Shown: positions 23,401-64,000 of the stretch, piece after piece
How the letters are laid out: every line of letters begins with the position of its first letter
How positions within the stretch are numbered: the stretch's first letter is position 1
Source: Trypanosoma brucei
Taxonomy: Eukaryota
Direction: 5' to 3'
Assembly (NCBI GenBank): GCA_000002445.1
Contig: CM000207.1
Coordinates: 672,001-736,000 of the forward strand
Length of the DNA stretch: 64,000 bases
Notes under the pieces: model-generated
What the model saw: the letters and a program-made list of their open reading frames with translations, nothing else
Told to the model about the DNA's origin: nothing
Databases searched by the model: none
Position numbers and translations under genes: made by a program

Positions 23401-23987
23401 GAGTCGGTCGACCGTGCTACGCGGCAGTGCGTTTGTGCTGTGAGTTTGCGGCGAGTTGTGTCCGACGCACTAGTTTCCCAGGACCTTGCGATCGTCCGTG
23501 GGAAATAGGAGAGGGTTGAAGTGTGTCCCTATGGGGAATGGTGGCGTCTGCTAGTTTTTGTCTTCCTTTTACTGCGTTATAGTGTCAGTCTGAGGTGGTG
23601 ACCATCCCCATCAGGCATCTGTTTGGTTACCGGTTGCACAGCCTTGGCACTAAGGGTGCTGCGGGGGTATTTCCATCTCTTTAATCTTACTTGTATGACT
23701 CGAGTCTTTGACTTCTTTCTTTTTGTCGTTTGATCTGTGATTGAATCTTTGCCGAGACAAAAGGTGCGTGTTCCAACGATCATCAACCACGGCGTTGCGC
23801 GGTGACTTGGTCAGTCGTTGTCCGGGAGGGGGGGGGGTGTCGGCGCGCGTGGTGTTGTGCTTTTGCACTTCTCCTTGCTGAGAGGACAAGACGTAGCTTT
23901 TGACCTATGTGCTCTGCACGTCAGTGGGTGGTTCTCTGATTTGACTGGGGGCATATTGGTGGTACTTCCCCTCATGAGGCGCTTCCG

Positions 23988-24345
23988 GAGAATATGAAGC
24001 ACCTATGGTTGTGAGATTGTTTAGTGGTAATAGTTATAATTTTCTTTTGTGTTCTTGTCACCGGTCAGTTCCGTTAGTGAGGAGTAGTTGCGCTCGTACA
24101 GACCCGTTGGTAATTGTTGTGAATTTGGTGCTCAGGGCTCCATGCGGCACTGGGGGCGAGGGCTCGTCATTCAGAGGATGTCGTATACTAAAGGGCAGGC
24201 AACGCTGTGCGAGATCACAATCGTTTTAGCGATTCTTGTTGGAAGTATTTATGGAGTCTTATGACACTGGGTATGGCTGGTATCATTCTGTGTTACCCTG
24301 TAGCCTACTGGTCGTTCATCATGGCCTACCTTGTTGCCGTAGGCA
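23988..24345. repeat. Copy A of a 358-bp perfect direct repeat
   Basis: Identical to 26827-27184 by direct comparison; divergence begins immediately outside both ends. Confidence 0.85.
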
Positions 24346-24886
24346 GCACTATAAAACGTGATCAAAAGGTTGCTGCTGCAGCTGGTTGTTTTATGTGGAC
24401 GGAGTGTGCCGCATAGTTTGAATAGCAACGTTTTATATCGCTTCGTTCAGCTTACACTCTTATTTTTTTCGATGACTGAAGAACGGTCTATCGGGGTATC
24501 CACTTAGTAGTTCATATATGTCGTACTACGCATATATTCATTTTTAAAATAAAAAACTGCGTCTAATATCGTTGAATTCCATGTTCTCTTTTAGTTCGTT
24601 GACTATATCGGGGAGAGTTTCACTTGTGGTTCGGTGCATGTGTGCCCCCTTAATAATTAGTAGTGATTTTTAAAAAATATTGACTCTGTCTCACTCTTCT
24701 TCTCTCTCTGTATGTGACCCTTTAATGTGTTTCTTGTCCCTGCATTTCCGGGTAGTTTTCATCATAGTTATTTAAACTTTATATTTTCGTTTCATTAATC
24801 TAATCAGCTGAAAATTAAACCTTTTTTTTTTTTAAAAGGGGTGTAGACAAATCAACTGTGAATTTATTCATTTATTGGGGCAACCG

Positions 24887-26809: not shown

Positions 26810-26826
26810 TTATTCTATTTTTCGAA

Positions 26827-27184
26827 GAATATGAAGCACCTATGGTTGTGAGATTGTTTAGTGGTAATAGTTATAATTTTCTTTTGTGTTCTTGTCACCG
26901 GTCAGTTCCGTTAGTGAGGAGTAGTTGCGCTCGTACAGACCCGTTGGTAATTGTTGTGAATTTGGTGCTCAGGGCTCCATGCGGCACTGGGGGCGAGGGC
27001 TCGTCATTCAGAGGATGTCGTATACTAAAGGGCAGGCAACGCTGTGCGAGATCACAATCGTTTTAGCGATTCTTGTTGGAAGTATTTATGGAGTCTTATG
27101 ACACTGGGTATGGCTGGTATCATTCTGTGTTACCCTGTAGCCTACTGGTCGTTCATCATGGCCTACCTTGTTGCCGTAGGCAGT
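26827..27184. repeat. Copy B of the 358-bp perfect direct repeat, starting 18 bp after the RAE1 stop
   Basis: Identical to 23988-24345. Confidence 0.85.
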
Positions 27185-27436
27185 ACTAAATTTAAAAGAA
27201 TTCCTTCGGCTGATAATATACTGAATCTTTTTGCTGTTCAGTTTATTTTGCACTGTCTCTCATTTTGGTGCGGCGCGGCGTATGCTTCACTGTTATGAAT
27301 CATGTCTTTTCCTTTTTTTTTTTGCAATATTTTTCGACATCGTTTGTGCCGTTGTTGGGTACAGGTTTTAGGTGTTAATCCGTTGCTGAGTAAATTTGGT
27401 TCTTAAATTTCGATTACTACGACAAGTAGCTGAGCG

Positions 27437-38025: not shown

Positions 38026-40140
38026 ATGAAAAAGAGGAGGCCAATACCCAATCCTACAAAGATCAGTTCCTACTTTTTCCAGCAGCTGGTAAGCCCAGGT
38101 GCAACAACTCCGGATGATAGGAAGGAGCGTGCCCAGTCCGAGCAAACGAAGCGGGCTGCCGCGTCGGTGCTAAGTGAGTCGTTTACACCAGAGGGCGTCG
38201 CTGCTTTCCTTCAGAGTAGGTCAGAAATTGAGCGACAGCACAGTGAAGCGCTAGAGGATGTGCTTGATGCTTGTTGGAAGCGTGTTGAGGACATAATCGA
38301 GCGAAATAAGGAGCGCCGTCGGGTTATAGAGGAGGACATTCCCCAAGTTGTTGCTCCCACAGGCACGTTCACCTTTTGGACACCCGAGGGCGTTGAACAA
38401 TACTACAGCCTGAAAACTTTGCCCGTTTTTGCCAGTGATGAGGAAGGCGTCAGAAGCGACAGCAATGGCTTCGGTACCGACAATAGCAACGCAATGAAAA
38501 GTGATAGAAATGGCCCTGCTGCCGCTGACCATGCAGTAATTTCGCCTCAGGGTCGCTCAGCGGAGGACAAAGTTGACGGAAACGCAGCGGCAGAGGGGGA
38601 CGGGAGGACTGATCCGGTTGCTGAATTTTCATCCCAAAGGGCATGTGGCAGGGCGCCCATTGTGTCGGGAGCCCACCATACGAAGGGGCGGAAATTGACG
38701 GACAAAGAACTTCTTGATGAATCGAAGGTCCCCCATTGTCTGCGTCGGTTGTTCGCCTCACTTCTTAGGCGTCGCAACGAATTTCCCAAATCAACAACAC
38801 TTCTATTTGATGCAATCCAGCGAACGCAGTCGGAGAGATTTCCTGAAATTGAAGCGGTGATCGAAGATGTACCCTTTTCAATGCCTCTTCATCGACCATT
38901 TAGATGCATCGCTGCCTTCGTGGCCCGGTCTTTCGCAGAGAACCCCAAGGGTGAAGCACCTGAGCAGGCATTTGCTGCGACTTTCAAAACGGTGAGCAAA
39001 GATTTGAAGACGGCATACGAGAAACTGCATGAACTAAAGGGTTATGTGCACCCTGTGGGTGAACGAACAGATCGGGCGGAAGTCATCTACAAAACCCTTT
39101 TGGGTGAGTTGCAGGGTCGGAAGAGTCTTCATGAAACCTACGGTATTGATATAGAAGCCATAATGAAAGCATCGGCAGTGGAGCTGAGCGTGATGGAGGG
39201 GGCTCTTAAAGAGTGTAATGAAACATCCCGGAGGTTGCTTGCCACCATTGAGGATCAGACCGCACAGTTCATAGCTGACGTGCACACCAGCCTTGATCGA
39301 CGAGAGGAGGCTATAGAGGAAATTGCCTCGTTCTACAAGCGGGATCGTGATCGCCTGCAGTCGTCATTGCAGAGGAAGATTTATCGTGCGAAGAAGAGTG
39401 AGGAACTTCAAGAAAAGTGCGCTCGACGTATTCGGGAGGTTACGAAGGAGCTTTACATTGAGCAGGTCAATTACGAGGAGCTGCTGCAGGAAATATTGGC
39501 AGAGAGTTTGCTGCTACAGCAGCTGGACAGCAGCTACACGCAGTTGTCAAGTTCGCTTAATAACGCAGCTTCCGTTCATCAGGAATCAAAGATAAGCTCT
39601 ATTAGGGAGGCGCTTCAGCGGTCGGAAGATGTTCGTGTGCATCTCATTGAACAATGTCAGTTCCACATAAACCGACTTAAAAAGGACGAGCACTATCGGC
39701 TCTGCCGCTTAGCCACAAACGCCAAGGATAATGCATTGTGCTGGTCTCGCTGCCTGAACGACCTTTCAACAATATATGAGACTCACTTTAACTCCCTAAA
39801 TGAGAAGTGCAGGGTCTCCACGCAAATGCGTTACCTTCTTTCGTACGAGAAAGATTGCGTTTCTCGTGACCTGAACCAAGTTCAAAAGGAAATGGAACAG
39901 TTAGATAGCAAATGGCACGAAATTTCCACTCTCCTGGAGGAACTCGGTGAACCAGTTCCACCACTTTCATTACTTGAAAAGGACCCCTCGTGTGGAGAGC
40001 TCCGCCACGCTTTGACCGCACTGGCATTAACTCGCCTTGTGCATGGAGAGTCTTCCCACCTTGTGCGCCCCGAACAGTGGAGAGAGCGAACTGTTGTGGC
40101 CACCGGTGACGGCAGTGCGACTGCGAATGATATGTCGTAG
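38026..40140 (+). CDS. Hypothetical coiled-coil protein, 704 aa
   Basis: ATG start; extended heptad-like regions in the C-terminal half. Confidence 0.5.
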   Translation: MKKRRPIPNPTKISSYFFQQLVSPGATTPDDRKERAQSEQTKRAAASVLSESFTPEGVAAFLQSRSEIERQHSEALEDVLDACWKRVEDIIERNKERRRVIEEDIPQVVAPTGTFTFWTPEGVEQYYSLKTLPVFASDEEGVRSDSNGFGTDNSNAMKSDRNGPAAADHAVISPQGRSAEDKVDGNAAAEGDGRTDPVAEFSSQRACGRAPIVSGAHHTKGRKLTDKELLDESKVPHCLRRLFASLLRRRNEFPKSTTLLFDAIQRTQSERFPEIEAVIEDVPFSMPLHRPFRCIAAFVARSFAENPKGEAPEQAFAATFKTVSKDLKTAYEKLHELKGYVHPVGERTDRAEVIYKTLLGELQGRKSLHETYGIDIEAIMKASAVELSVMEGALKECNETSRRLLATIEDQTAQFIADVHTSLDRREEAIEEIASFYKRDRDRLQSSLQRKIYRAKKSEELQEKCARRIREVTKELYIEQVNYEELLQEILAESLLLQQLDSSYTQLSSSLNNAASVHQESKISSIREALQRSEDVRVHLIEQCQFHINRLKKDEHYRLCRLATNAKDNALCWSRCLNDLSTIYETHFNSLNEKCRVSTQMRYLLSYEKDCVSRDLNQVQKEMEQLDSKWHEISTLLEELGEPVPPLSLLEKDPSCGELRHALTALALTRLVHGESSHLVRPEQWRERTVVATGDGSATANDMS

Positions 40141-40596: not shown

Positions 40597-41553
40597 ATGG
40601 CTCCAGTAGTGTGGCCGTGCGCCCTTAACCCATCAAATCACATACTGGTGCAAGAGTTGCTGCTACACGCGTCATTAGGTCGTCACCGCCATTCCCTGAG
40701 GGACAGAAAGGACTTTTTTCACCTTGCTAGGCACATTTCCTGCCTCAAAGAACCTTGCAAATACCTCGTTTCTGCGCCACCAACCTCTCGTGGACCACTG
40801 TGGGCTCCTTGGCGAAGCACAGTCCCCCGGCAAATAGTTTTCAATCGTATACTCCGTCAGTGCACCGATACTTATACGCAATCATCCCATAAAGAAGACA
40901 AAGAAGACGAGGAGGGGAGACGCGTACCAGTGTTTTATGATGATGCCATTGCTCATTTGAACAGAATAGCAGAAGAACTGGGGCCACACGGATACAAAGT
41001 AACTCTGGTCGGAGCACTGCGACGCGGGTGCCCCGTTGCTTCCCGAGCTGAGTTCCTTTTGACGTACGATGATGACGATAGAATCAGGAAACATCGTGAC
41101 AACGACACCACTGTGTCCCACAGTGTTCATTTTGAGCGAGCGATACAGGGACTAAGGGCTTCCGGATACATCAAGCATCATAGGACAAAAAGAAAGATTG
41201 ATATTCACACAAAACAGTACATAACACTTGCTTCTAGGTCCCATTCACATCCAGAAACCCTCTCCACATCACGAGAGGAAAGACAGGTTTTGTCTATTAC
41301 CTGGTCAAAACCACAACAGTTTCACACGCGGCAGCTGTTCCTCACGGGCCCGAACCCATTCGTGGTGCACCTTGTGCTGCTGGCCCATGCGAAGGGCCTG
41401 GGACTGGATCCTTGCGGGTTGTACAAATCCCAATTAGGGTTTCGGGAGTCTGTGGCACTTGAATGTGAAAGGGACATCTTCGCTGCGTTGCAGTTGCCGT
41501 ACGTTGAGCCCATTCACCGCCATGCATACTGCCGCGTTCACAACCTGTTTTGA
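40597..41553 (+). CDS. DNA polymerase X family (pol beta-like) protein, 318 aa, with non-canonical catalytic residues
   Basis: ATG start. The C-terminus (ERDIFAALQLPYVEPIHRHA) matches pol beta [28 protein letters not shown]...AHAKGLGLD matches FTGS..F...RAHALEKGF, RKIDIH matches RRIDIR (Asp256), and ALRRG matches SFRRG. The GDMD carboxylates are replaced by SRAE. Confidence 0.65.
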   Translation: MAPVVWPCALNPSNHILVQELLLHASLGRHRHSLRDRKDFFHLARHISCLKEPCKYLVSAPPTSRGPLWAPWRSTVPRQIVFNRILRQCTDTYTQSSHKEDKEDEEGRRVPVFYDDAIAHLNRIAEELGPHGYKVTLVGALRRGCPVASRAEFLLTYDDDDRIRKHRDNDTTVSHSVHFERAIQGLRASGYIKHHRTKRKIDIHTKQYITLASRSHSHPETLSTSREERQVLSITWSKPQQFHTRQLFLTGPNPFVVHLVLLAHAKGLGLDPCGLYKSQLGFRESVALECERDIFAALQLPYVEPIHRHAYCRVHNLF

Positions 41554-42424: not shown

Positions 42425-42978
42425 ATGAGTTTCGCCCAGCTACTTTGAAGGTGCCATTATCAGTTTTTTGTTTTGATTTATTTTCACTACGCTGCCATCC
42501 TCGGTTGTGTAGTGCTAGAAAATGAAATGACACATGTCAGTACTGAAACTAGTGTAAGTTACAACCTCGAAGCTGCCTGTGTTTCCATGTTAGTCACCCC
42601 TTTGACATTTTCTTACCTTTTTGCTCATTAGTATTTTATGCTGGTGATAGACGCCCACTTTGGTGGTTCCTATGTGATGCAGCGAGTGAGATGAGGTGGC
42701 ATGCTATACTTCACTTCCGTGAGCTGCGTCACCACAGGTTCACCAACCCCTTCTCCACTGCGTGAGGATCGCGTGGTAAAAGCGTTTTCCGTGTTGGTGT
42801 CTTGTAGTAGAGTCATCCGAATGTGCCTCTCGCGGATAATGTGATTTATGTTTCCCACTGTTGCAGGCGGCTGCGAGTAGTCGGGTGCATCACAGATCAG
42901 CTTAGATTTCGCACAAGATCTGAGGCCCCGGAAGGTGTTTTCAAGCCTCTTCCTTATCGTCTTGGCGCTACGTTGTGG

Positions 42979-43143
42979 TTACTCCAATCGCATACCAACC
43001 AAGGCCTGAATGCCAGGATATCGAGCTTAGGAGCGAATATCGACAAGGCCAGACAGCGTGGCGAACAGCAGGTTGCGTTAAAGGAAGAGGAGTTAAGGGA
43101 TCTGCAGGGGAGACTTGAGAGTTTGATGAGGGATTTGGAGTGA
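42979..43143 (+). pseudogene. 3' fragment of the BRAP2-like gene, last 54 codons plus stop, copy 1
   Basis: Identical to 56268-56432, the C-terminus of the full BRAP2-like gene (LLQSHTNQGLNARISSLGANIDKARQRGEQQVALKEEELRDLQGRLESLMRDLE*). The upstream ORF extension starts with GTG at 42823 and has no ATG. Confidence 0.75.
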
Positions 43144-43543: not shown

Positions 43544-44629
43544 ATGGTCGTCAAACGCCGTGGAAATGGCCGGTTAGGCAAACCTCCGACAGATACTGGA
43601 GTGAGTGAGAACTCTACCGGTGGAACCCCACCCCCGGAGTCTGCTTCTCAACGTGGCGGGGCGAAACAAACTACGGTTGCTTCCGCGATCAAGCAGCCCG
43701 CTTCGATGCCCGACGGCTCGTTGTCGCAGGATCGACGAAAGCGCCGCCGTAGGTTATCGGTGCCAGAGGAGGTGGCCCATGCCGTTGTGGAGGGGGAAGA
43801 AGCTACAGGTGCTGTAAGGGATGAAAGACTACCCGAAAATACTCGAGTTGTTGAACCTCAATTGAATGATCATGATGGTAAAGAGAGATACCCTCTGGGC
43901 GTTGTCCAGTTCCCAGAGGAGCAGCGCCCGTGGAGGAGCGCAAGGCGTAAAGCTGGGGTAGCTGAGGGAGGTAGTGACGAGGTTAACGCCGCACAGCTTC
44001 CTCCGACGGGCAACGCTGTGCCGCAGAAACCAACTAGGCGTTTAGGTAGAGCATCTGCCCCTCCGATACCACCTGTCGGTACTGTTGAACATGATTTGCA
44101 GACAACTGGTGGAACGTGTACGAGTGCTCCTATTGCGGGTGACCGCGCTTCCCGAACGTTTCAGGCGGCGGCGAGCCCCTCCGAAGATATTAAACAAAGG
44201 CCGCATAGAATTCCATTGATAATAGATAAGGGGCGTTTCAGTAAGCAAAAAGTCGAGGCTCCTCCCGGGACCGCAACCGTGGTGCCCATGGACACTGGAG
44301 AAAACCAGGCTGGCGTTTGTGAAGCAAACTCCGCACCACCAACTTCCTGTTCCCACCGTGGCGCCCAGCGCTTGGGGCATGGCCAACCTGCTGATGGCAC
44401 AAGTGGTGCTGTTGATAGTATAGAGGAGGGGCCCGGGCGCGGAATTGAGGAAGCCTCCGTGGACGCGCGACGTAGGAGGTTTATGCAGGTGCCGGTGAGC
44501 AGAATCTCGTTGTATACACGGCTTGCCGAGGGGGGTTTGGATGCTGCCGACCGCCCATTTGTCACATGTGTGGTAAAACATGCCCAATCGTCTGTTTCCG
44601 CATGGGTATCCGGGTTCTTGTCGCCTTGA
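43544..44629 (+). CDS. Hypothetical basic, low-complexity protein, 361 aa, copy 1
   Basis: ATG start. Rich in R/K/P/S/G. Duplicated at 50031-51116 with three amino-acid differences. Confidence 0.5.
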   Translation: MVVKRRGNGRLGKPPTDTGVSENSTGGTPPPESASQRGGAKQTTVASAIKQPASMPDGSLSQDRRKRRRRLSVPEEVAHAVVEGEEATGAVRDERLPENTRVVEPQLNDHDGKERYPLGVVQFPEEQRPWRSARRKAGVAEGGSDEVNAAQLPPTGNAVPQKPTRRLGRASAPPIPPVGTVEHDLQTTGGTCTSAPIAGDRASRTFQAAASPSEDIKQRPHRIPLIIDKGRFSKQKVEAPPGTATVVPMDTGENQAGVCEANSAPPTSCSHRGAQRLGHGQPADGTSGAVDSIEEGPGRGIEEASVDARRRRFMQVPVSRISLYTRLAEGGLDAADRPFVTCVVKHAQSSVSAWVSGFLSP

Positions 44630-47806: not shown

Positions 47807-48040
47807 ATTTACACGCGGCAGCTGTTCTTCACGGGCCCGAACCCATTCGTGATGCACCTTGTGCTGCTAACCCATGCGAAGGGCCTGGGACTGGATCCTT
47901 GAGGGTTGTACAAATCCCAATTAGGGTTTCGGGAGTCTGTGGCACTTGAATGTGAAAGGGACATCTTCGCTGCGTTGCAGTTGCCGTACGTTGAGCCCAT
48001 TCACCGCCATGCATACTGCCGCGTTCACAACCTGTTTTGA
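47807..48040 (+). pseudogene. 3' fragment of the Pol X-like gene (last about 78 codons) at the unit 1/unit 2 junction; carries an in-frame TGA
   Basis: Matches 41320-41553. Where copy 1 reads ggatccttgcgggttg, copy 2 reads ggatccttgagggttg near 47880, introducing a stop. There is no ATG. Confidence 0.75.
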
Positions 48041-48911: not shown

Positions 48912-49465
48912 ATGAGTTTCGCCCAGCTACTTTGAAGGTGCCATTATCAGTTTTTTGTTTTGATTTATTTTCACTACGCTGCCATCCTCGGTTGTGTAGT
49001 GCTAGAAAATGAAATGACGCATGTCAGTACTGAAACTAGTGTAAGTTACAACCTCGAAGCTGCCTGTGTTTCCATGTTAGTCACCCCTTTGACATTTTCT
49101 TACCTTTTTGCTCATTAGTATTTTATGCTGGTGATAGACGCCCACTTTGGTGGTTCCTATGTGATGCAGCGAGTGAGATGAGGTGGCATGCTATACTTCA
49201 CTTCCGTGAGCTGCGTCACCACAGGTTCACCAACCCCTTCTCCACTGCGTGAGGATCGCGTGGTAAAAGCGTTTTCCGTGTTGGTGTCTTGTAGTAGAGT
49301 CATCCGAATGTGCCTCTCGCGGATAATGTGATTTATGTTTCCCACTGTTGCAGGCGGCTGCGAGTAGTCGGGTGCATCACAGATCAGCTTAGATTTCGCA
49401 CAAGATCTGAGGCCCCGGAAGGTGTTTTCAAGCCTCTTCCTTATCGTCTTGGCGCTACGTTGTGG

Positions 49466-49630
49466 TTACTCCAATCGCATACCAACCAAGGCCTGAATGC
49501 CAGGATATCGAGCTTAGGAGCGAATATCGACAAGGCCAGACAGCGTGGCGAACAGCAGGTTGCGTTAAAGGAAGAGGAGTTAAGGGATCTGCAGGGGAGA
49601 CTTGAGAGTTTGATGAGGGATTTGGAGTGA
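49466..49630 (+). pseudogene. 3' fragment of the BRAP2-like gene, copy 2
   Basis: Same as 42979-43143, offset by 6,487 bp. Confidence 0.75.
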
Positions 49631-50030: not shown

Positions 50031-51116
50031 ATGGTCGTCAAACGCCGTGGAAATGGCCGGTTAGGCAAACCTCCGACAGATACTGGAGTGAGTGAGAACT
50101 CTACCGGTGGAACCCCACCCCCGGAGTCTGCTTCTCAACGTGGCGGGGCGAAACAAACTACGGTTGCTTCCGCGATCAAGCAGCCCGCTTCGATGCCCGA
50201 CGGCTCGTTGTCGCAGGATCGACGAAAGCGCCGCCGTAGGTTATCGGTGCCAGAGGAGGTGGCCCATGCCGTTGTGGAGGGGGAAGAAGCTACAGGTGCT
50301 GTAAGGGATGAAAGACTACCCGAAAATACTCAAGTTGTTGAACCTCAATTGAATGATCATGATGGTAAAGAGAGATACCCTCTGGGCGTTGTCCAGTTCC
50401 CAGAGGAGCAGCGCCCGTGGAGGAGCGCAAGGCGTAAAGCTGGGGTAGCTGAGGGAGGTAGTGACGAGGTTAACGCCGCACAGCTTCCTCCGACGGGCAA
50501 CGCTGTGCCGCAGAAACCAACTAGGCGTTTAGGTAGAGCATCTGCCCCTCCGATACCACCTGTCAGTACTGTTGAACATGATTTGCAGACAACTGGTGGA
50601 ACGTGTACGAGTGCTCCTATTGCGGGTGACCGCGCTTCCCGAACGTTTCAGGCGGCGGCGAGCCCCTCCGAAGATATTAAACAAAGGCCGCATAGAATTC
50701 CATTGATAATAGATAAGGGGCGTTTCAGTAAGCAAAAAGTCGAGGCTCCTCCCGGGACCGCAACCGTGGTGCCCATGGACACTGGAGAAAACCAGACTGG
50801 CGTTTGTGAAGCAAACTCCGCACCACCAACTTCCTGTTCCCACCGTGGCGCCCAGCGCTTGGGGCATGGCCAACCTGCTGATGGCACAAGTGGTGCTGTT
50901 GATAGTATAGAGGAGGGGCCCGGGCGCGGAATTGAGGAAGCCTCCGTGGACGCGCGACGTAGGAGGTTTATGCAGGTGCCGGTGAGCAGAATCTCGTTGT
51001 ATACACGGCTTGCCGAGGGGGGTTTGGATGCTGCCGACCGCCCATTTGTCACATGTGTGGTAAAACATGCCCAATCGTCTGTTTCCGCCTGGGTATCCGG
51101 GTTCTTGTCGCCTTGA
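50031..51116 (+). CDS. Hypothetical basic low-complexity protein, 361 aa, copy 2
   Basis: Offset by 6,487 bp from copy 1. Differs by R/Q, G/S and A/T substitutions. Confidence 0.5.
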   Translation: MVVKRRGNGRLGKPPTDTGVSENSTGGTPPPESASQRGGAKQTTVASAIKQPASMPDGSLSQDRRKRRRRLSVPEEVAHAVVEGEEATGAVRDERLPENTQVVEPQLNDHDGKERYPLGVVQFPEEQRPWRSARRKAGVAEGGSDEVNAAQLPPTGNAVPQKPTRRLGRASAPPIPPVSTVEHDLQTTGGTCTSAPIAGDRASRTFQAAASPSEDIKQRPHRIPLIIDKGRFSKQKVEAPPGTATVVPMDTGENQTGVCEANSAPPTSCSHRGAQRLGHGQPADGTSGAVDSIEEGPGRGIEEASVDARRRRFMQVPVSRISLYTRLAEGGLDAADRPFVTCVVKHAQSSVSAWVSGFLSP

Positions 51117-54293: not shown

Positions 54294-54527
54294 ATTTACA
54301 CGCGGCAGCTGTTCTTCACGGGCCCGAACCCATTCGTGATGCACCTTGTGCTGCTAACCCATGCGAAGGGCCTGGGACTGGATCCTTGCGGGTTGTACAA
54401 ATCCCAATTAGGGTTTCGGGAGTCTGTGGCACTTGAATGTGAAAGGGACATCTTCGCTGCGTTGCAGTTGCCGTACGTTGAGCCCATTCACCGCCATGCA
54501 TACTGCCGCGTTCACAACCTGTTTTGA
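54294..54527 (+). pseudogene. 3' fragment of the Pol X-like gene, copy 3; reading frame intact but GTG-initiated only
   Basis: Track ORF 54267-54527 starts with GTG; the C-terminal 78 codons are identical to the Pol X-like gene. Confidence 0.7.
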
Positions 54528-54752
54528 GAGCGCCCGCGCCTTCCTTTTATTTGTTCTCCATGGGATATTGCTGTTCTTTAACTTCCTAACTGTATGGTTT
54601 TCTGTCGCATGTGTCGTCACAGACGCGCATCATTTTTTATACGACTAGATATGCCGCGTTACAGAGACCTATCGATTGCCTGATTAAGTACTCTTGCAGG
54701 TGTTGCTTTGTCTTCTCCGCACTATTACTCATTCCCTTTTTCTTTACTGATT
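54294..54752. repeat. Partial third repeat unit, 5' part (Pol X 3' fragment plus downstream 225 bp)
   Basis: Identical to 41320-41778 and 47807-48265. Sequence diverges from the RPS7-containing units at 54753. Confidence 0.85.
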
Positions 54753-54776
54753 GGTGTTGATAGTATATTTTTTGAA

Positions 54777-56432
54777 ATGAGTGTCACCGGCTTCGGTGAT
54801 GTTGTTGTATCTTTTGATGCGGAAGGTGTTGTAGTTGTTGGGCTAACTTATGAGCGTTCAAATGCGACACAGTGGTTGCTGCTCCCGGAAATTCCCGTTG
54901 AAGTCCCTCTTGTTAAGGTTCTTCGTGATCTTGAGGAATCTGGTGCTTCTCGACAACGGTCACCTGGTCGAATGAGGGGAGAAGGAGTTAAAGGAGATGT
55001 TTGTTTGCCAGACAGTGAAGTTGGATCACCTTGTAACGCGTGCGGTGTTAATAACATTCGTAGTGATTGTTGCATTTCTGTTGCTCGTGTGGGGCACATT
55101 CCGGAACGAAATCGCGCATACTGTTTGCTTTTGGAGTTGTCATCTTCTTCTGATGCCGCTGATGTGCAAAGAGATCTGCTGCACGTCGAGTGGGCTAATG
55201 GGCCCTTGTGTGCACCGCAGTTTTTGCAGTCCGTCGGCCGTATAATGAGGGTGGAGCATGAAGGGCGTGATGCCGCATGCGTGAGCAACTGCGCGGGTTG
55301 GCGGACACAAGTGTCTACGGACAATGCGGAAGATGTTTGCCTACGTGTCCTTTGCAGTGTGTCGTGCGGTGTTGATGGGGCGTCATCTCGGCGGCAGTTG
55401 GAAAGTGAAAAGGAGATATCTAGCGTTGCGCTCCGGAGAGACGCTCCTCTAGCACCGATAGAAGAGTTTTGCCCCATCTGCCGTGAGGAAATCGCATCTG
55501 GAAGAACGTGCGTTGTTACTATGTGCACCCACGTCTTCCACCTTGTTTGCCTCATGAAGCACTTAGAAGATGTTAGTTCATATTGCCCTCTTTGTCGTTT
55601 TTCGATGTCGTCTCTTGAAACTAAGTGCAACGCGTGTGGAACGTGCCAGGACTTGTGGAGTTGTTTAGTTTGCGGTTGGGTGGGATGTGGTAAGGGGCGG
55701 CACGGACATAGCATACGGCACTTCCACAGCACAGGGCACTCGTGTGCCGTGCAGAATAGCACTTCACGCATATGGAACTATCGCGCCAGCACATTTCTCC
55801 ACCACCAACTAGCTATGGAATTGGGTTACGAAGACGACGCAAGGGCGGAGCGTGCTGCAGCGCAGGAGGAGGGCAGGTCGGCCCTCTCTGTTCGTCACAG
55901 CGGGGAAAAACCCAGGGTCAGTGCTTCATCCTATTGGCGCAGTAGGTGGTGGTGGGACGAAAAGGAAGAGGAAGCTGCACAAGAGCTCAATGGCGACTAT
56001 GTGCGGGAGTATTATCTCCGTGTAATGGAGGAACTCATGCAGGAACAGGCGGACTATTTTGAGGGGCGTACAATGGTGGAGGGAGAGAATGCGGCTGTAC
56101 CCATCGGGACATGGAAGAAGCTGCAAAGCGCAGAACGGCGTCAACGGCGTAGTCTTGCTTCGAGGTACATTGCTGGTTTGCGCCGTATTGCGCTACACAG
56201 CCAGATGGCCGTCAACAATTTTGTGAAGCAGGAGGTCTTATGGAGGGATTCGTTGCGTGAAGAGTTATTACTCCAATCGCATACCAACCAAGGCCTGAAT
56301 GCCAGGATATCGAGCTTAGGAGCGAATATCGACAAGGCCAGACAGCGTGGCGAACAGCAGGTTGCGTTAAAGGAAGAGGAGTTAAGGGATCTGCAGGGGA
56401 GACTTGAGAGTTTGATGAGGGATTTGGAGTGA
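54777..56432 (+). CDS. BRAP2/ETP1-like E3 ligase: RING-H2 + ZnF-UBP + C-terminal coiled coil
   Basis: RING-H2 region: CPICREEIASGRTCVVTMCTHVFHLVCLMKHLEDVSSYCPLCRF. ZnF-UBP region: CNACGTCQDLWSCLVCGWVGCGKGRHGHSIRHFHSTGHSCAV. Track start at 54708 is TTG inside the shared repeat; the first ATG is at 54777, after the repeat boundary. Confidence 0.75.
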   Translation: MSVTGFGDVVVSFDAEGVVVVGLTYERSNATQWLLLPEIPVEVPLVKVLRDLEESGASRQRSPGRMRGEGVKGDVCLPDSEVGSPCNACGVNNIRSDCCISVARVGHIPERNRAYCLLLELSSSSDAADVQRDLLHVEWANGPLCAPQFLQSVGRIMRVEHEGRDAACVSNCAGWRTQVSTDNAEDVCLRVLCSVSCGVDGASSRRQLESEKEISSVALRRDAPLAPIEEFCPICREEIASGRTCVVTMCTHVFHLVCLMKHLEDVSSYCPLCRFSMSSLETKCNACGTCQDLWSCLVCGWVGCGKGRHGHSIRHFHSTGHSCAVQNSTSRIWNYRASTFLHHQLAMELGYEDDARAERAAAQEEGRSALSVRHSGEKPRVSASSYWRSRWWWDEKEEEAAQELNGDYVREYYLRVMEELMQEQADYFEGRTMVEGENAAVPIGTWKKLQSAERRQRRSLASRYIAGLRRIALHSQMAVNNFVKQEVLWRDSLREELLLQSHTNQGLNARISSLGANIDKARQRGEQQVALKEEELRDLQGRLESLMRDLE

Positions 56433-56978
56433 TGTTTTTCGGCGTCGTCTTGTCATCCCATCCCGCCCCCCTTCCGTATCATGCTGCGTCATTCCCCTTC
56501 GCCACTTATCAACACAGTCGTGTGCACTCCTACTGTTCTCACATCAGTCAGTGCAGCTTAGTTACCTCGTTTGGCTTACTTTGACTTAAGTACCTTTTTT
56601 TGTGCTCATTGCGGTTGCTGTATGACTGCCAGCTCTCAGATGTCTGGACTTTCCATTCTCTTTATGTTGACCCTACACACCTGCCCCACACTGCATTTCC
56701 CCCCACCGCTCCCTGTTTGCACCTTCCTGCTGTATGGGTGGTGTAAAATACCCATTAGCATTATAGCAGTTGGTGGCTTGTTAATAACTGAAGTTCGGAT
56801 TACCGTGGCGAGTAAAGGTTTCCGGTGATATTATGGTCGTCAAACGCCGTGGAAATGGCCGGTTAGGCAAACCTCCGACAGATACTGGAGTGAGTGAGAA
56901 CTCTACCGGTGGAACCCCACCCCCGGAGTCTGCTTCTCAACGTGGCGGGGCGAAACAAACTACGGTTGCTTCCGCGAT
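56268..56978. repeat. Partial third repeat unit, 3' part (BRAP2 3' end through the first 49 codons of the 361-aa gene)
   Basis: Identical to 42979-43689 and 49466-50176. Homology ends at 56978. Confidence 0.85.
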
Positions 56979-58060: not shown

Positions 58061-61000
58061 ATGGCATCGGAGGCAGCGTTATCGCTTCCTGCTGATGATG
58101 AAAAGGTGCAGGCGGATGCTGCTACTAATCACGGTACCACAACGCCCCCCTCTTCAGTAGAGACAGCACCAAGTACGGCCACTGGTGCTGTTGCACCGAC
58201 GGGTTCCAGCGAACGGGAAAGCAACGTAGTAATGCCCGCGGTTGCTGTTGTGCCCGCATTGGAAGCAAGTGAATGTCAGGTGCAAACAGAGCCGGGAGGG
58301 AACGACCCTATTACGTCTGGGGAGCTTTCGCTCGTTAATGACCATACGGCACCGCAAAAGCTGAATGCTGATGTGAAGTTGTTCTCGGGTGACAACCGGC
58401 CTTCAAAGTCGTTGGCTGCACCTTTCAGGGGCCCTAGTAATCGACCACAAGGAATTCCCCCTGGCGGCGGCACCCCTTTATGGCCCCCCAATGCTCCTCT
58501 TGGCCAAACTGTGATGTCGCTTCCGCATCCACCCATGCCTCCTCATCAACTTTATCAACCTCCTTTGATGATTCCAACACTGGTGCCGAATATGCATCCA
58601 CTGATGGCACCGTTCATCTCAGGCATGGCCCACGCCCCACAGCCGCCCCCGCCCCCCCCACCGCCGCCAGGGTTTGGACCCCCACCGGGTTCGTTTGGGC
58701 CACTGCCGTTTCCCGCAGCATTGAATGGACCTCTTGGCGCACCGCCTCCGCCCCTCATGATGCCCAATCCACCCGATTTGGCAGTTTTTCAACCGCGGTT
58801 CCCTGGTGACAAGATGGCGGCGTCGCAGTCATCCCAGGGTCCGGCGCTTTCGAAGCAAAAATCACATGTGTTGTCGGCTTCATCACCAAGTGCGAAGATA
58901 ATTGTTGGTAATGCTTCCCTTGCCGCACATGTGTCAAATGATCCGCCTAAATTCTCGTGCGTATTGCTTTCTGGAATATCAGCAGTTGGCAAAACAACAA
59001 TGGGAAGGGAGTTAGTTAACGAACTACAGGCAGATGGTTTAGGCTGGGTATTTTTTTCTGGTGCTGATTTCATTTCAGCTCCTACAACGAGGCGGGCCGT
59101 GTGGGAGACCACAAAGGAGGTATTTGATGCCCTGGAGAAGCAGCTGGAGAGGCTTCTTGACCAACAGAAGGAAAAGCGAGACTTGAAGGGTCTTGTCATC
59201 GACAAAAATGTGAAGAACGTAGAGGACATTTTTTATTTGGCGGCGCTGCTAAGATCGAAGCAGATCCCATTTGTTGGAATTGTAGGCATGGAAGCTGATG
59301 ATGATGAGGTGCTTCTGCAGCGCATGGGTGGCGAGCGGGAACTTCATGAAAAGCTAAAGTACCACCGTGTTATTCATTATAGGATCCGTAATTTAGCCAG
59401 GAAAGCGGCTATGTACCGAGAGATTGACGCCAACAAGCCGAGGCAAGAGGTTCTCAACGCATTGCGCACTAAGGTGCTGGGTTGTTGCGCCCAACCACCG
59501 CAGAATGGTATACTTTCTGATCTATACGTGAAATCGGCTTCCATTTCAATGGTTGATGACTATGCCGAATACTACACGGTTGTGACACAACTTTTCGACT
59601 TAATTAAACCATTGAATGGCTCTGCACACTTCCCCGGAACAACGAACTACGTTCCCTTGTCAACCCGTGATATGGCCGACAAGAATCGTGTGAGTGCAAT
59701 CAAGGAATCCTACGGTGCCCGTCGATTTAACAAAGGCACCCGCTACCTGCTCATGTATGATAAGGGGAAATTGTACCTGATTTCGACTCATCTTAGGGCG
59801 GTATTACGCCTGTCTCCCAAAGCGCTGTTAGGAGATAAGATGGCTTCGGTAACGTGCGCCGTGTTTGAGGGTGATTTAGTGAGAATAAGGGAGGACCCGC
59901 AGACCGAAATATTTCTTGTTTTTGACGTTCTCTTTTGGAATAATGCAGCGGATCCGGAGGGCAATGAGGTGACACAGATGAGTATGGAACAGCGTCATGC
60001 CCTTCTGAGCGCCCACCTATGCAGTGAAAGCAGTGCCTTCTCCCCTACGGGTACTGACTGCGTTGTGGCCTACCGAGCCACGGTAAAGCTTGAGGAGATT
60101 CCAAAACTTCTGGAGCCATGCGGTTTCCCAGGTGAGGGCATAATATTCCAACCCACTTCTTCGGTACACAATCTGAACAAAGTGTATTTGTGGCGACCCG
60201 CGAGCAGTATTTCAGTAGATTTTCGCATTGGTGCGTTGAGGGGGACACGAGAAGAGAGTGCTGTTTCGGAGAGCGGTGAATTGTGTGCGGATGCGGGCTC
60301 CCCAACGCTGAATGATTCTGCTAATCCCGGTGCCACCGCTGGCCAATCTCAGTCCCAACTGTCAAATAGTAGTAACCCGGCAGGGCAGAGCGCTGTGGGC
60401 TCCGGAGGGTCTAGCCATGTGCGTTGTAATGAAGGCGGTCCCACGCGTACCTTTGAGCTTGAAGTCTATGACAAGCAAGAAAAGGAATACACACAATTCG
60501 AAGACTGTACAGTGGATGTGAGGCACCCAGACGTGGTAGAGGGTTGCATATGCACTTGTGCGCTCGCGGACGAAAAGGGCCGTAAGTGGAGTTTCCAGAA
60601 TATCTGCTACGATGCGGTTCGTCCTGCATACAAGCGAGATGTAAGTTCACTGCTCGAGCACTCTATCATTCCAAAGTCCAAACTTCTTCAGTGGCTCGCT
60701 AGCGAAAAGATTACACCACCACTTCCAAGTGGTACAGTGCCACAAGCGGCGACTTCGAGTGCCCCACAGCAACAATTCTGGGAGGCGGTTTCGAATTCCA
60801 TTCGACAACCTCCACCGCATGCACCCCCGGCGTACGCCAGCGCCGTCCTCATGCAGCATGCTATGCCCCGACCAAACCCATCAGGGGCCCACGGCGGCGG
60901 CACAAACCTTGCAGCACTTGCAGAGGTAGTTGCCCCAACTGAAATTTCAAAGGGACACCAACCGGTGCTAACATCAACCTCTAGCGCGGGTGTGGGCTCT

Positions 61001-62005
61001 CCTCCCCGGGGGCTGTCAATTGGTCAACCACCAAGCTACAAGATGCATGGGCTTTTGCAGCAGGGGCTATCGACGTCACCGGGAACAAAGAAGGTTGTGG
61101 GAGTGGCACCCGACAACACTGTGGCTGCTGTTGGTGGCTCTTCCGCGGCGGGCGGCAGCGCAACGAACACGTATGTGGTGCAGTTGTTAACGTCAATGGT
61201 TCGCTCCGTACGCACTGTTCGTAAGGATGGGGTGGGCGACGAGTGCCAAAGTACAGCGGGTGCGACTCGACAGGAACAGCACCCTTCATGTGTCGATCGG
61301 TCAGACGGCGATCAGCACAGACGAGGGCACACTCGTTTTGATGATGTGAAGGATAGGAGGGAGCGGGGTCACGGGAAAATGCGGCGGGCCACCAGTGGTA
61401 CACCTGGTCGCTGTATGGGGTGTGGCAAGGACAAGCCAGCGGAGGAACTTCGCTTCCGCCCAAAGGACAATTTGTACTGCTATGACTGCTGGGCAGCGAA
61501 GGGTTGGGAAACATGCCGTGAGTGTGGAGAGTTTAGTAGGGGCTACCACGAACGCACGCGTGAGTGTGTGGGTGAGTTTTACTGCAACAACTGTTGGGAG
61601 AAGTTCAAGGAAGGAGACAACCAAAAAAAGGAAGGGAGGAAAGAAGATACCGAAAACCAACAAGGGGAGAGGAGGCGGCGAAGACCCAAGCGGCAAATTC
61701 AAACAGTAGAAGTGAAGGATGAAGGGGAGAGCAAAACTGCAAGCGATTTTACAGCGGAGGCAGCGGGGAGAGACGGTGCGGCGAAGCGGCGGGCGCGGCG
61801 TGGACAGAAGAACGACACCAAAGACCGTGCAGCTGTTGATATTCATGTTGGATGTGAGGAAGTTAGCGAAGGGAGGACCGCCGCGAACGACACGAATGCC
61901 GCGGAACAGGCACAGGAGGACGGCACGAAGTCAAATAAGAGGCATGGAGTTGAGAGTAGATCCAACAAAAGGCATAGGCGGAAGGAGGCAGTTAGGGGCG
62001 AATAA
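58061..62005 (+). CDS. Large multidomain protein: Pro-rich N-terminus, P-loop NTPase/kinase-like domain, capping-enzyme-like covalent nucleotidyltransferase domain with OB region, C-terminal Cys-rich zinc-binding module and basic tail
   Basis: ATG start. Walker A (LLSGISAVGKTTMG) at about aa 303-314. NTase-like motifs: FNKGTRYLLMYDKGKLYLI (motif I-like), AVFEGDLV...IFLVFDVLFW (motif III), EGIIFQP (motif IV), VYLWRP...VDFRI (motif V-like). Cys-rich tail: CMGCGKDK...YCYDCW...CRECGEF...YCNNCW at aa 1118-1179. Confidence 0.7.
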   Translation: MASEAALSLPADDEKVQADAATNHGTTTPPSSVETAPSTATGAVAPTGSSERESNVVMPAVAVVPALEASECQVQTEPGGNDPITSGELSLVNDHTAPQKLNADVKLFSGDNRPSKSLAAPFRGPSNRPQGIPPGGGTPLWPPNAPLGQTVMSLPHPPMPPHQLYQPPLMIPTLVPNMHPLMAPFISGMAHAPQPPPPPPPPPGFGPPPGSFGPLPFPAALNGPLGAPPPPLMMPNPPDLAVFQPRFPGDKMAASQSSQGPALSKQKSHVLSASSPSAKIIVGNASLAAHVSNDPPKFSCVLLSGISAVGKTTMGRELVNELQADGLGWVFFSGADFISAPTTRRAVWETTKEVFDALEKQLERLLDQQKEKRDLKGLVIDKNVKNVEDIFYLAALLRSKQIPFVGIVGMEADDDEVLLQRMGGERELHEKLKYHRVIHYRIRNLARKAAMYREIDANKPRQEVLNALRTKVLGCCAQPPQNGILSDLYVKSASISMVDDYAEYYTVVTQLFDLIKPLNGSAHFPGTTNYVPLSTRDMADKNRVSAIKESYGARRFNKGTRYLLMYDKGKLYLISTHLRAVLRLSPKALLGDKMASVTCAVFEGDLVRIREDPQTEIFLVFDVLFWNNAADPEGNEVTQMSMEQRHALLSAHLCSESSAFSPTGTDCVVAYRATVKLEEIPKLLEPCGFPGEGIIFQPTSSVHNLNKVYLWRPASSISVDFRIGALRGTREESAVSESGELCADAGSPTLNDSANPGATAGQSQSQLSNSSNPAGQSAVGSGGSSHVRCNEGGPTRTFELEVYDKQEKEYTQFEDCTVDVRHPDVVEGCICTCALADEKGRKWSFQNICYDAVRPAYKRDVSSLLEHSIIPKSKLLQWLASEKITPPLPSGTVPQAATSSAPQQQFWEAVSNSIRQPPPHAPPAYASAVLMQHAMPRPNPSGAHGGGTNLAALAEVVAPTEISKGHQPVLTSTSSAGVGSPPRGLSIGQPPSYKMHGLLQQGLSTSPGTKKVVGVAPDNTVAAVGGSSAAGGSATNTYVVQLLTSMVRSVRTVRKDGVGDECQSTAGATRQEQHPSCVDRSDGDQHRRGHTRFDDVKDRRERGHGKMRRATSGTPGRCMGCGKDKPAEELRFRPKDNLYCYDCWAAKGWETCRECGEFSRGYHERTRECVGEFYCNNCWEKFKEGDNQKKEGRKEDTENQQGERRRRRPKRQIQTVEVKDEGESKTASDFTAEAAGRDGAAKRRARRGQKNDTKDRAAVDIHVGCEEVSEGRTAANDTNAAEQAQEDGTKSNKRHGVESRSNKRHRRKEAVRGE

Positions 62006-64000
62006 ACAAAAAGGTAGGGGTTCCACACTTAACTGTCACGGTTATGTGGCAGGTTTATGCAGCAAGCGGTGACATTTGCCAATTTGTAGTGTGTTTCCCT
62101 CCCCCTCCCCCTGCTGAGGGGGGAAGGGGGAGGGATCCGCACGTTTTTTTGCGCGCATAATACTTCCCTTATTTCTGTTAGTGGACGAATGTCGTTTGCT
62201 TTTCGTGTTTTCTCAACCTGCAGGAGGTGGTGTGAAAAAAAAGAATTTCATGAAAGAAGCCATGGGGTAGCCCGTTATGAAACTTCTCGGCCGCCTAAGG
62301 GGAAGACAAGGGGGAAGAGAGCTTGAGGAGGGAGGGATTTAGGATGAAAAATGTGTACCATTTATTGTACAGGGTGCATCTAAATGATTGACGCCGTTGT
62401 GCGTTAACTCATTACAACAGTTGTTATCTTTTCATTCCCCCCCCTCCCCACTGCATCTTCTTTTGTTTTCCTCGAAAGGGGGAGTTTTCTTTCTTTCTTT
62501 CTTTTCATTCAACTCTTCCGTGACTGCCGTTACTTTTGGACCGCGCATGTCTCCCTCTACATACTGGAGTAGCGAGCGATGTTTCCGTTCCATATTTCCT
62601 CAACCGAAGGATGAAAAAAAATAAAAATAAAAAGAAATGGGCGAAACGATGGTGTGGAATCGATCCTTGATGCGGAGGGGGAAAGTGTGTGTTTGTGTTT
62701 TTGTTTGTGTGGAAGGTAAGATCGAAGCAGAAAAAAGAATAAGAAGGATAAGAAGAAAAGGAAAAAAAAAAGGATTAACAACCGTGCAAGGGGAACGATG
62801 ACATCTGCTTTTTTTTTTTTTTTTAATTTTCTTCTTACGCATTTCATTTCATTTCATTTCACTTCTGTTGTTTTTTTTTGTTTTTTGTTGTTGTCGCTCC
62901 TGTTAGACATCATTCCTAAAATTGCGCGGTGAAGTTCTTACGGTGTGCCGGGAAGTATGAAGGAGGGAGAACGGAACAGAAAGCGAGCGATAAAGCGAGT
63001 GTTAAGGGAGTAAGAACAAAGGGAAAGGAAGAGAAACAGAGAAATGTATGGGAACAAATAAAATAAGAGAAAAGAAAGGAAAAACAAACAAACAAACAGA
63101 GAGATGAAAGGATGCAGAGGAAAAGGAGGGGGAAAAGTGTTCCCGTTGTTGCCTACTTCCTTTCCACAATCCTCTTCTCTTTCTTCCTTTCCTACGTGTA
63201 CTATTTTCCCAGTGATTCACTATCATTTTTTCTTTTTCTTTTTTTTTTTTAATGGTTATTTGTTTTTTGTTCATTCACAAGAAAAAAATCATTTTCTTGT
63301 TTTTTTTTCCGATGTTGTTGCTGTTGTTATTGTTATTGTTATTGTTATTGTTGTTGTTTTGTTTTCGAGACAATCCCTACGGAGAATTATCACACCTCTT
63401 TTTTTTCTTTTTTTTTTTGTATCATTTTTTTTGTTTTTACAACCTAAATTATTAAAGGAGTGTGTGTGTGTGTGTGTGTGGAAGGAGGAGAGGAGGAGAG
63501 GGGGAGAAAGAAATAAATAGAATGAAATGAAAAAGTGAAAAAGGGGTTTAATAACCTCTTGTTCTTCTTCGTTTTGTTTTTTTTTTTTACAGTTCATCTT
63601 TACAAGGCTGCAGGCAGGGGAGATGAAAAGAGGATGGGATGAAACCCCCTCCTCCAAAAAACAACGACAAAAACAACAACAAAGACAATAATAATAATAA
63701 TAACAATATCAGTAACAGTATCCAAAAGATGAAAAGTAAACAAAAAATAATAAGAATAATAAATGAAGCATCAAGAGGGGGAAAGAGCTACCGTGCGGTA
63801 AAGTATGGAATACGGTGTACGTTTCATGCAGGCGCGCACATGTACTTATATGTGTGTATATTTTTCCTCATCTTGTTTTTTTTGTTTGTTTTCCATTATC
63901 TTTTTTTTCTTTTTCTTTTTCTGTCTTTTTTCTGTTTTTTTTTTCTGTTTTTATGTTTATATTTGCGTTACTTTTTTTTTTCCCTCCTCCTCTTTTAGTT
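62006..64000. other. Gene-free low-complexity region rich in T-tracts, A/G-tracts and several microsatellites; possible end of transcription unit
   Basis: No ORF longer than about 140 aa, and those present are repeat-encoded. Microsatellites: (GTTATT)n near 63311-63350, (TG)n at 63463-63480, (AAT)n at 63686-63706, (CATTT)n at 62836-62860. Confidence 0.5.

Follow-up and report, generated by a model that had tools for sequence, protein, structure and literature searches.

We report that a 318 amino acid protein encoded on chromosome 9 of Trypanosoma brucei brucei TREU927 has the palm and thumb of a Pol beta-type Pol X polymerase but has all three catalytic aspartates replaced. The open reading frame (ORF) lies at 40597-41553 on the plus strand of the 64,000 nucleotide stretch that was analyzed, here called the window (NCBI GenBank assembly GCA_000002445.1, contig CM000207.1, positions 672,001 to 736,000 of the forward strand). 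The reading that we favor, with reasonable but by no means full confidence, is that of a non-catalytic Pol X pseudoenzyme conserved across kinetoplastids which acts as a binding or scaffold module. The product is identical to the TREU927 entry EAN76475/Q38FE5, labelled in databases either as "hypothetical protein, conserved" or as "DNA polymerase beta thumb domain-containing protein", and shows 99% identity to the protein of T. b. gambiense. The gene is probably Tb927.9.3910, an identifier inferred by position from those published for its neighbors, which are Tb927.9.3990 for the second copy of RPS7, Tb927.9.3930/.4000 for TelAP3 and Tb927.9.3970/.4040 for the nicotinamidases.

The assignment of the product to Pol X is solid. 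The Pol beta-type thumb is matched by Pfam PF14791 over residues 247-308 (E 4.5e-13; 49.3 bits against a cutoff of 25), and all of the thumb matches picked out by the earlier sequence-only reading of this DNA, namely TG..F, AHAKG and ERDIFAALQLPYVEP, fall inside this segment. A palm of the Pol beta type, with the nucleotidyltransferase fold, is contiguous with the thumb. Relatives were collected by an exhaustive hidden Markov model (HMM) search of 1.84 billion representatives, a word-index homologue search having yielded 2-4 proteins per query, and 24 family members were aligned and counted by Pol beta position; the PF14791 thumb was matched in 21 of these 24. Searching the PDB with the profile of the 24-member family gave as top match the Pol beta of Leishmania infantum (4p4m, E 3.3e-11), followed by Pol lambda, TdT and Pol mu. 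Alignment to canonical Pol X by hhalign reached 99.2% probability (E 3e-19), pairing residues 104-312 of the T. brucei protein with 118-335 of Pol beta, and an AlphaFold (AF2) model built on the 24-sequence alignment (pLDDT 81.6, pTM 0.68) matched Pol lambda and Pol beta in Foldseek at E ~3e-14. The claim of a Pol X paralogue made from the letters alone is thus borne out, the similarity going well past what chance would give. By the alignments, the palm subdomain comprises residues 111-236 (40927-41304), and the thumb, together with a C-terminal tail of the form R-x-AYC-x-x-HNL, comprises residues 237-318 and the stop codon (41305-41553).

Within the palm the catalytic carboxylates are missing. 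MAFFT, HMMER and hhalign all align GSFRRGAESSGDMD to VGALRRGCPVASRAE, so that D190 of Pol beta corresponds to R150 and D192 to E152; around this segment VGALRRGCPVASRAE is also paired with CGSFRRGAESSGDMD. The replacement of G189-D190-M191-D192 by S149-R150-A151-E152 (41041-41052), which had been noticed as SRAE in place of GDMD, therefore stands. The third aspartate is lost as well. MAFFT, the HMMER profile search against the PDB and hhalign agree in placing the D256 strand at 229-RQVLSITW-236, with D256 replaced by S233 (codon at 41293-41295). This segment coincides with a strand predicted at 229-236 in the AlphaFold model, and it lies upstream of the invariant TG motif by 17 ungapped residues, the same number as in Pol beta. 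The sequence-only reading had instead aligned RKIDIH (residues 199-204; 41191-41208) to the RRIDIR of Pol beta and had for this reason counted two substituted aspartates out of three. It should be noted that RKIDIH sits on the beta-hairpin preceding the D256 strand in the model, that T. b. gambiense and T. equiperdum have GKIDIH at this place, and that the other Trypanosoma species lack the motif. On these alignments the resemblance to RRIDIR is one of chance, and since the D256 strand falls on 229-236 and not on RKIDIH, the loss extends to all three of the catalytic aspartates. N279 and R283, which contact the nascent base pair and the minor groove, are both replaced by valine in T. brucei.

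The same loss extends across the family. None of the 24 members has an aspartate at the D190 or the D256 column, each of which holds a single glutamate and is otherwise hypervariable (H, R, Q, A, V, S and others), while the D192 column is acidic in 15 (10 Glu, 5 Asp) and something else in 9. Conservation of the SRAE segment in orthologues, a check which had been proposed with the original observation, was in this way addressed, and the complete triad is present in no member. Among the substrate-contact positions S180, R183, G189, Y271, F272, N279 and R283, the only ones kept are R183 (21/24) and an aromatic residue at 271; S180, G189, N279 and R283 are replaced. By comparison, R182, T273-G274 and R333 are found in all 24 members and P330 in 23, G179 and G184 are near-invariant, and the E316 column holds 22 Glu and 2 Asp. 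A conserved structural core combined with a freely varying active site is the pattern expected of a pseudoenzyme, and the replacement of all three metal-binding residues supports, more strongly than first proposed, the earlier suggestion that this Pol X-like protein is altered in its catalysis or not an enzyme at all. We infer from these alignments that the T. brucei protein does not polymerize or perform two-metal nucleotidyl transfer.

Two alternatives bear directly on these counts. That the protein is the canonical mitochondrial Pol beta whose aspartates are missing by an artefact of alignment is suggested by the resemblance of RKIDIH to RRIDIR and by Leishmania Pol beta being the best sequence match in the PDB. 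We regard this as almost certainly wrong, given that the substitutions come out alike with three alignment methods and in the structure model and that no orthologue has the triad; a shifted alignment, which the sequence-only reading itself had named as the way in which it could fail, is thereby excluded. In T. brucei, moreover, the genes for the active enzymes, Pol beta and Pol beta-PAK, lie elsewhere, on chromosome 5. The other alternative is that the protein is still an enzyme which uses a non-canonical active site, for example E152 together with other ligands, for a different nucleotidyl-transfer or lyase reaction. For this we looked for an alternative set of conserved acidic residues in the palm and found none across the 24 members. 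The sole near-invariant acidic residue, E291, corresponds to E316 of the thumb, which is no metal ligand. With the D190 and D256 columns hypervariable, S180 and G189 not kept, and the lyase residue Lys72 absent even in those relatives which retain the helix-hairpin-helix (HhH) hairpin, a surviving enzymatic activity appears improbable.

The pseudoenzyme reading also has to account for the N-terminal part of the protein, which consists of a basic helical domain (residues 1-95; 40597-40881), delimited by the helices of the model, family motifs and isoelectric point (pI), and of a short acidic linker. When T. brucei and family proteins were scanned with the Pfam models of the 8-kDa/HhH domain and of the fingers, neither the former (HHH_8 threshold of E<=10) nor any of the 24 family members (E<=0.1) gave a match. 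The sequence-only reading had found no recognizable deoxyribose phosphate lyase domain, which holds as far as the missing HhH/8-kDa signature is concerned; however, the domain is probably a degenerate 8-kDa domain, that is a remnant and not unrelated sequence, because syntenic relatives keep an IPGVGRS hairpin. This hairpin is found in two distant members of the family (P0024 and P0025), where it aligns to LPGVGTK, the first HhH motif of Pol beta, with isoleucine at the position of Lys72; compared alone with Pol beta 61-78 it gives E 0.004. The model places helices at 12-27, 34-48, 54-58 and 75-94, the first three of which are close to the helix positions of the Pol beta 8-kDa domain. The domain starts with a motif conserved in the family, HPANHxxVQELxL, which fits the Pol X helix-A pattern N..I...L..L and aligns to Pol beta N12-L22, and a further motif, Y..A...IA, fits helix B; the T. 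brucei domain has the former as N..V..L..L and has the latter as well. When the N-terminal 108 residues were compared with Pol X N-termini by hhalign the match was collinear (38-51 with Pol beta 37-50) but not significant (E 0.17). The pI of the domain is 10.2, against 9.9 for the 8-kDa domain of Pol beta. The HhH hairpin and an equivalent of Lys72 are absent from the T. brucei domain, and the hairpin is degenerate in Trypanosoma. The linker which follows, SSHKEDKEDEEGRR (residues 96-110; 40882-40926), is modelled with pLDDT <50 at residues 96-103, and the palm begins at about residue 108, equivalent to about residue 148 of Pol beta. As just these ~15 acidic residues of low confidence precede the palm, the fingers (D) subdomain with its second HhH motif is missing in Trypanosoma; trypanosomatids outside this genus carry a short conserved segment, P.RL.ALY.P, at the fingers position.

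The family comprises about 25 specific relatives, counted as cluster representatives, of which 20 matched at E<=1e-10; the next matches are ordinary Pol X proteins, hit mainly via the thumb. Those with a species name belong to T. grayi, Phytomonas and many species of Leishmania; in Leishmania the gene is on chromosome 01 and adjoins RPS7. Intact ORFs are found in the T. brucei subspecies, T. grayi, Phytomonas, Leishmania and many further assemblies, with lengths of 320-660 amino acids owing to insertions. Three more distant members (P0024, P0025 and P0170) likewise lack the triad, having serine for D190, glutamine or histidine for D192, and histidine or alanine for D256. Environmental metagenome contigs with P0170 carry, all on one strand, a gene of 719 codons, the PolX-like gene, one or two copies of RPS7, a RING/ZnF-UBP gene and further genes, and the flanking genes were paired by tblastn with the following parts of the window: 38230-40023, the RPS7 copies (68% identity) and 55419-56417. 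On the contig of P0025 the start of RPS7 (MSYVPHLRKL) follows the PolX-like stop codon after 175 nt. This shared gene order identifies P0024, P0025 and P0170 as kinetoplastid orthologues and gives PolX-like, RPS7, RING/ZnF-UBP as the ancestral arrangement. The distant members end in NRLE, comparable to the DRSE of Pol beta, and the trypanosomatids add to this the conserved AYCxxHNL tail. The adjacency of the PolX-like gene and RPS7 is seen on the environmental contigs L001 (4956-6332), L002 (1605-2216) and L006 (1193-1222). A spliced leader was looked for on L006 and on a further contig, L004, and neither has one. One environmental contig has two tandem copies of RPS7, a duplication at the same locus which is independent of the one in T. 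brucei.

In T. brucei the 3' end of the gene coincides with the breakpoint of a tandem array, as the sequence-only reading had stated. Self-comparison of the window gave a unit with a period of 6487 nt whose left edge is at 41321-41324, inside codon 242/243, with further copies starting at 47807 and 54294; the 3' fragment of the gene (codons 242-318) accordingly recurs on the plus strand as copy 2 at 47807-48040 and as copy 3 at 54294-54527. Both fragments carry H243Y, L249F, V257M and A263T. A stop codon in copy 2 had been correctly recognized but placed at 47880, about 20 nt off: it arises from a TGC to TGA change at 47900-47902 (C to A at 47902) which is specific to this copy, copy 3 having kept TGC at 54387-54389 and being free of internal stops, again as originally read. 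No in-frame ATG was found upstream of either fragment, and both are thus untranslatable relics. The simplest explanation, drawn from the biology of trypanosome gene expression, is that the fragments are incidental by-products of the amplification of a unit containing RPS7: the intergenic region upstream of RPS7, which would hold both the 3' untranslated region of the PolX-like gene and the processing signals of RPS7, would have had to be included, and the breakpoint would have fallen by chance in the coding sequence upstream. The full-length allele of T. equiperdum (P0004) shares V257M and A263T (window positions 41365 and 41383, codons 257 and 263) with copies 2 and 3 of TREU927, which suggests either gene conversion between relic fragments and intact gene or an old shared polymorphism.

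The array also bears on a further alternative, namely that the gene as a whole is left over from a duplication of Pol beta, without function and in decay, and is open by chance. The protein evolves fast (41-47% identity within Trypanosoma) and shows seven amino acid polymorphisms among the T. brucei subspecies, and the gene abuts a recombination-prone array which has already produced truncated copies of it. The true relics look different, though, one having acquired a stop codon and neither having a start codon, whereas the gene itself persists in place as an intact, full-length ORF in Leishmania, in Trypanosoma and as far out as environmental kinetoplastids of bodonid-like type, its N-terminal and thumb motifs conserved and its fold predicted with confidence. 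Neither a disrupted frame nor a lack of conservation, by which a unitary pseudogene would be recognized, is seen at this syntenic kinetoplastid locus. We therefore consider decay very improbable.

As the gene has remained intact since before the trypanosomatids split from their free-living relatives, its fold presumably serves a non-catalytic role. The pseudoenzyme retains the palm and thumb of the Pol beta fold and, at its N-terminus, a basic helical domain, without the triad, N279, R283, the lyase lysine and, in Trypanosoma, the fingers. Most likely such a fold has been re-used to bind nucleic acid, to dock partner proteins or both, and the protein would then take part in some transaction of DNA or RNA as its scaffold or adaptor subunit, possibly in the mitochondrion, which is where the Pol beta paralogues active in kinetoplastids are at work. 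The overall basic charge (net +12, pI 9.4) is compatible with nucleic acid binding. Several points weigh against this proposal. The relationship of the N-terminal domain to the 8-kDa domain falls short of statistical significance, with the comparison restricted to the hairpin giving the better of the two E values quoted above, and the loss of both HhH motifs in Trypanosoma makes binding of the DNA backbone or of gaps in the manner of Pol beta doubtful. The conserved domain begins right at the N-terminus, with no obvious presequence before it, and mitochondrial targeting is thus unsupported by the sequence. Fast divergence and the subspecies polymorphisms indicate that constraint is moderate. 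Data on localization, partners or phenotype of the T. brucei protein were not found in the searchable literature, and the probable identifier Tb927.9.3910 does not occur in the searchable main texts or in the partly covered supplements of TrypTag, hyperLOPIT, ImportOmics, the nuclear proteome and the TelAP2 paper, an absence which is not evidence. The literature likewise gave no mention of Tb927.9.3880-.3920, of other Tb927.9.39xx identifiers (except.3930,.3970 and.3990) or of guessed Leishmania identifiers, and no description or characterization of this catalytically dead third Pol X paralogue was found in its searchable part.

To our knowledge trypanosomatids have only Pol beta-type Pol X enzymes, which they use in the unusual replication of kinetoplast DNA, and pseudoenzymes derived from polymerases are rare. 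If the protein were a core adaptor, it would be an unrecognized component of kinetoplastid nucleic acid metabolism and would show how the fold of a repair polymerase can be repurposed; if it turned out to be dispensable, it would be a well-documented example of pseudoenzyme drift.

Other features of the locus deserve a brief description. Minus-strand ORFs of 63-82 amino acids which overlap the PolX-like gene were rejected as real genes, being antisense within a run of plus-strand genes, and an Rfam scan of 36000-58000 returned no match. In each unit of the array RPS7 is followed by a basic ORF of 361 amino acids (43544-44629 and 50031-51116) which by position is probably TelAP3 (Tb927.9.3930/.4000), a telomere-associated protein (PMC11649696) included in the nuclear proteome; a third copy, starting at about 56833, is truncated to its 5' end and diverges after 56978. 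Each unit also holds an ORF of 106 amino acids (42823-43143 and 49310-49630) whose last ~52 residues are shared with the 574 amino acid product of the RING/ZnF-UBP gene (54708-56432), the environmental orthologue of which has BRAP2-like domains, and the segment 42979-43689 is repeated at 56268-56978. The array thus carries truncated 3' ends of both of the ancestral neighbors of RPS7. Its third unit lacks the RPS7 segment and has in its place the 5' part of the RING/ZnF-UBP gene. Further downstream, an ORF of 1314 amino acids (58061-62005) has stretches of low complexity that are rich in proline, along with a P-loop motif (GISAVGKTT); it has the same relative position as a gene of more than 1152 codons on the environmental contig L002, with no tblastn match at E 1e-5. 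The last part of the window, 62001-64000, has a GC content of 0.376 against about 0.50 elsewhere, with long low-complexity pyrimidine- or purine-rich tracts and repetitive ORFs, and may be a strand-switch or other non-coding region downstream of the 1314 amino acid gene. Unrelated to the array, a direct repeat of 369 bp with 99.2% identity occurs at 23983-24351 and 26820-27188, about 2.8 kb apart.

When compared with known Pol beta and Pol X proteins (human Pol beta, Pol lambda, L. infantum Pol beta 4p4m and the Pol X of African swine fever virus), the T. brucei protein differs in having none of the three aspartates, N279, R283, Lys72 or HhH hairpins, in the 15-residue acidic linker which replaces the fingers and, along with the other trypanosomatid members of its family, in the additional conserved AYCxxHNL tail. 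Like T. brucei Pol beta and Pol beta-PAK it is a kinetoplastid Pol X paralogue, and the best score of the family profile being that against a kinetoplastid Pol beta (4p4m), in an alignment which continues through the segment just upstream of the D256 strand, hints at an origin by duplication within that lineage. The mitochondrial Pol beta and Pol beta-PAK fill gaps as active polymerases, and their triads and HhH motifs are intact, which is not so for the PolX-like protein.

Diplonemids are the sister group of the kinetoplastids. In Diplonema papillatum the mitochondrial protein DAPX1 (DIPPA_70088) is PolX-like but has its catalytic residues substituted; it is recovered 1:1 with PPRD1, a PPR-DYW deaminase, on purification, both C-to-U and A-to-I editing depend on it, and it constitutes an essential core subunit of the RNA-editing machine (bioRxiv 10.64898/2026.09.04.749523). 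DAPX1 has been described with the 8-kDa, palm and thumb parts of Pol X and with most of the catalytic residues substituted, and is proposed to be a non-catalytic partner or stabilizer with an exposed nucleic acid cleft. The kinetoplastid family shows the same kind of architecture and inactivation. The T. brucei protein could accordingly be the kinetoplastid counterpart of DAPX1, an ancient euglenozoan non-catalytic Pol X serving as stoichiometric cofactor of a mitochondrial RNA-processing or editing enzyme, which it would stabilize while offering its nucleic acid cleft to RNA. We see this more specific form of the scaffold proposal as unlikely. Beyond the shared PolX fold the comparison is by description, and outside the PolX domain the preprint finds no similarity of DAPX1 to characterized non-diplonemid proteins. 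T. brucei lacks a PPR-DYW protein (bioRxiv 10.64898/2026.09.04.749523) and so has no homologue of PPRD1, which means that any partner must be a different one. Among the solved structures, those of editosome and mitoribosome assemblies included, none has a T. brucei chain with this sequence, which means that the kinetoplastid mitoribosome and editing complexes published so far do not contain the protein as a modelled subunit. More speculatively, and on a rather slim chance, both proteins might descend from one ancient glycomonad (kinetoplastid and diplonemid) invention, a Pol beta duplicate stripped of catalysis which presents nucleic acid as an adaptor in the expression or maintenance of the mitochondrial genome; in kinetoplastids, with no DYW deaminase to serve, it would have been re-wired to another machine, for example to U-insertion/deletion editing, to RNA processing or to the protection of the gaps which mark replicated kinetoplast DNA minicircles. 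Whatever the history, DAPX1 is the closest precedent, and the only functional one, that we found for the kinetoplastid protein.

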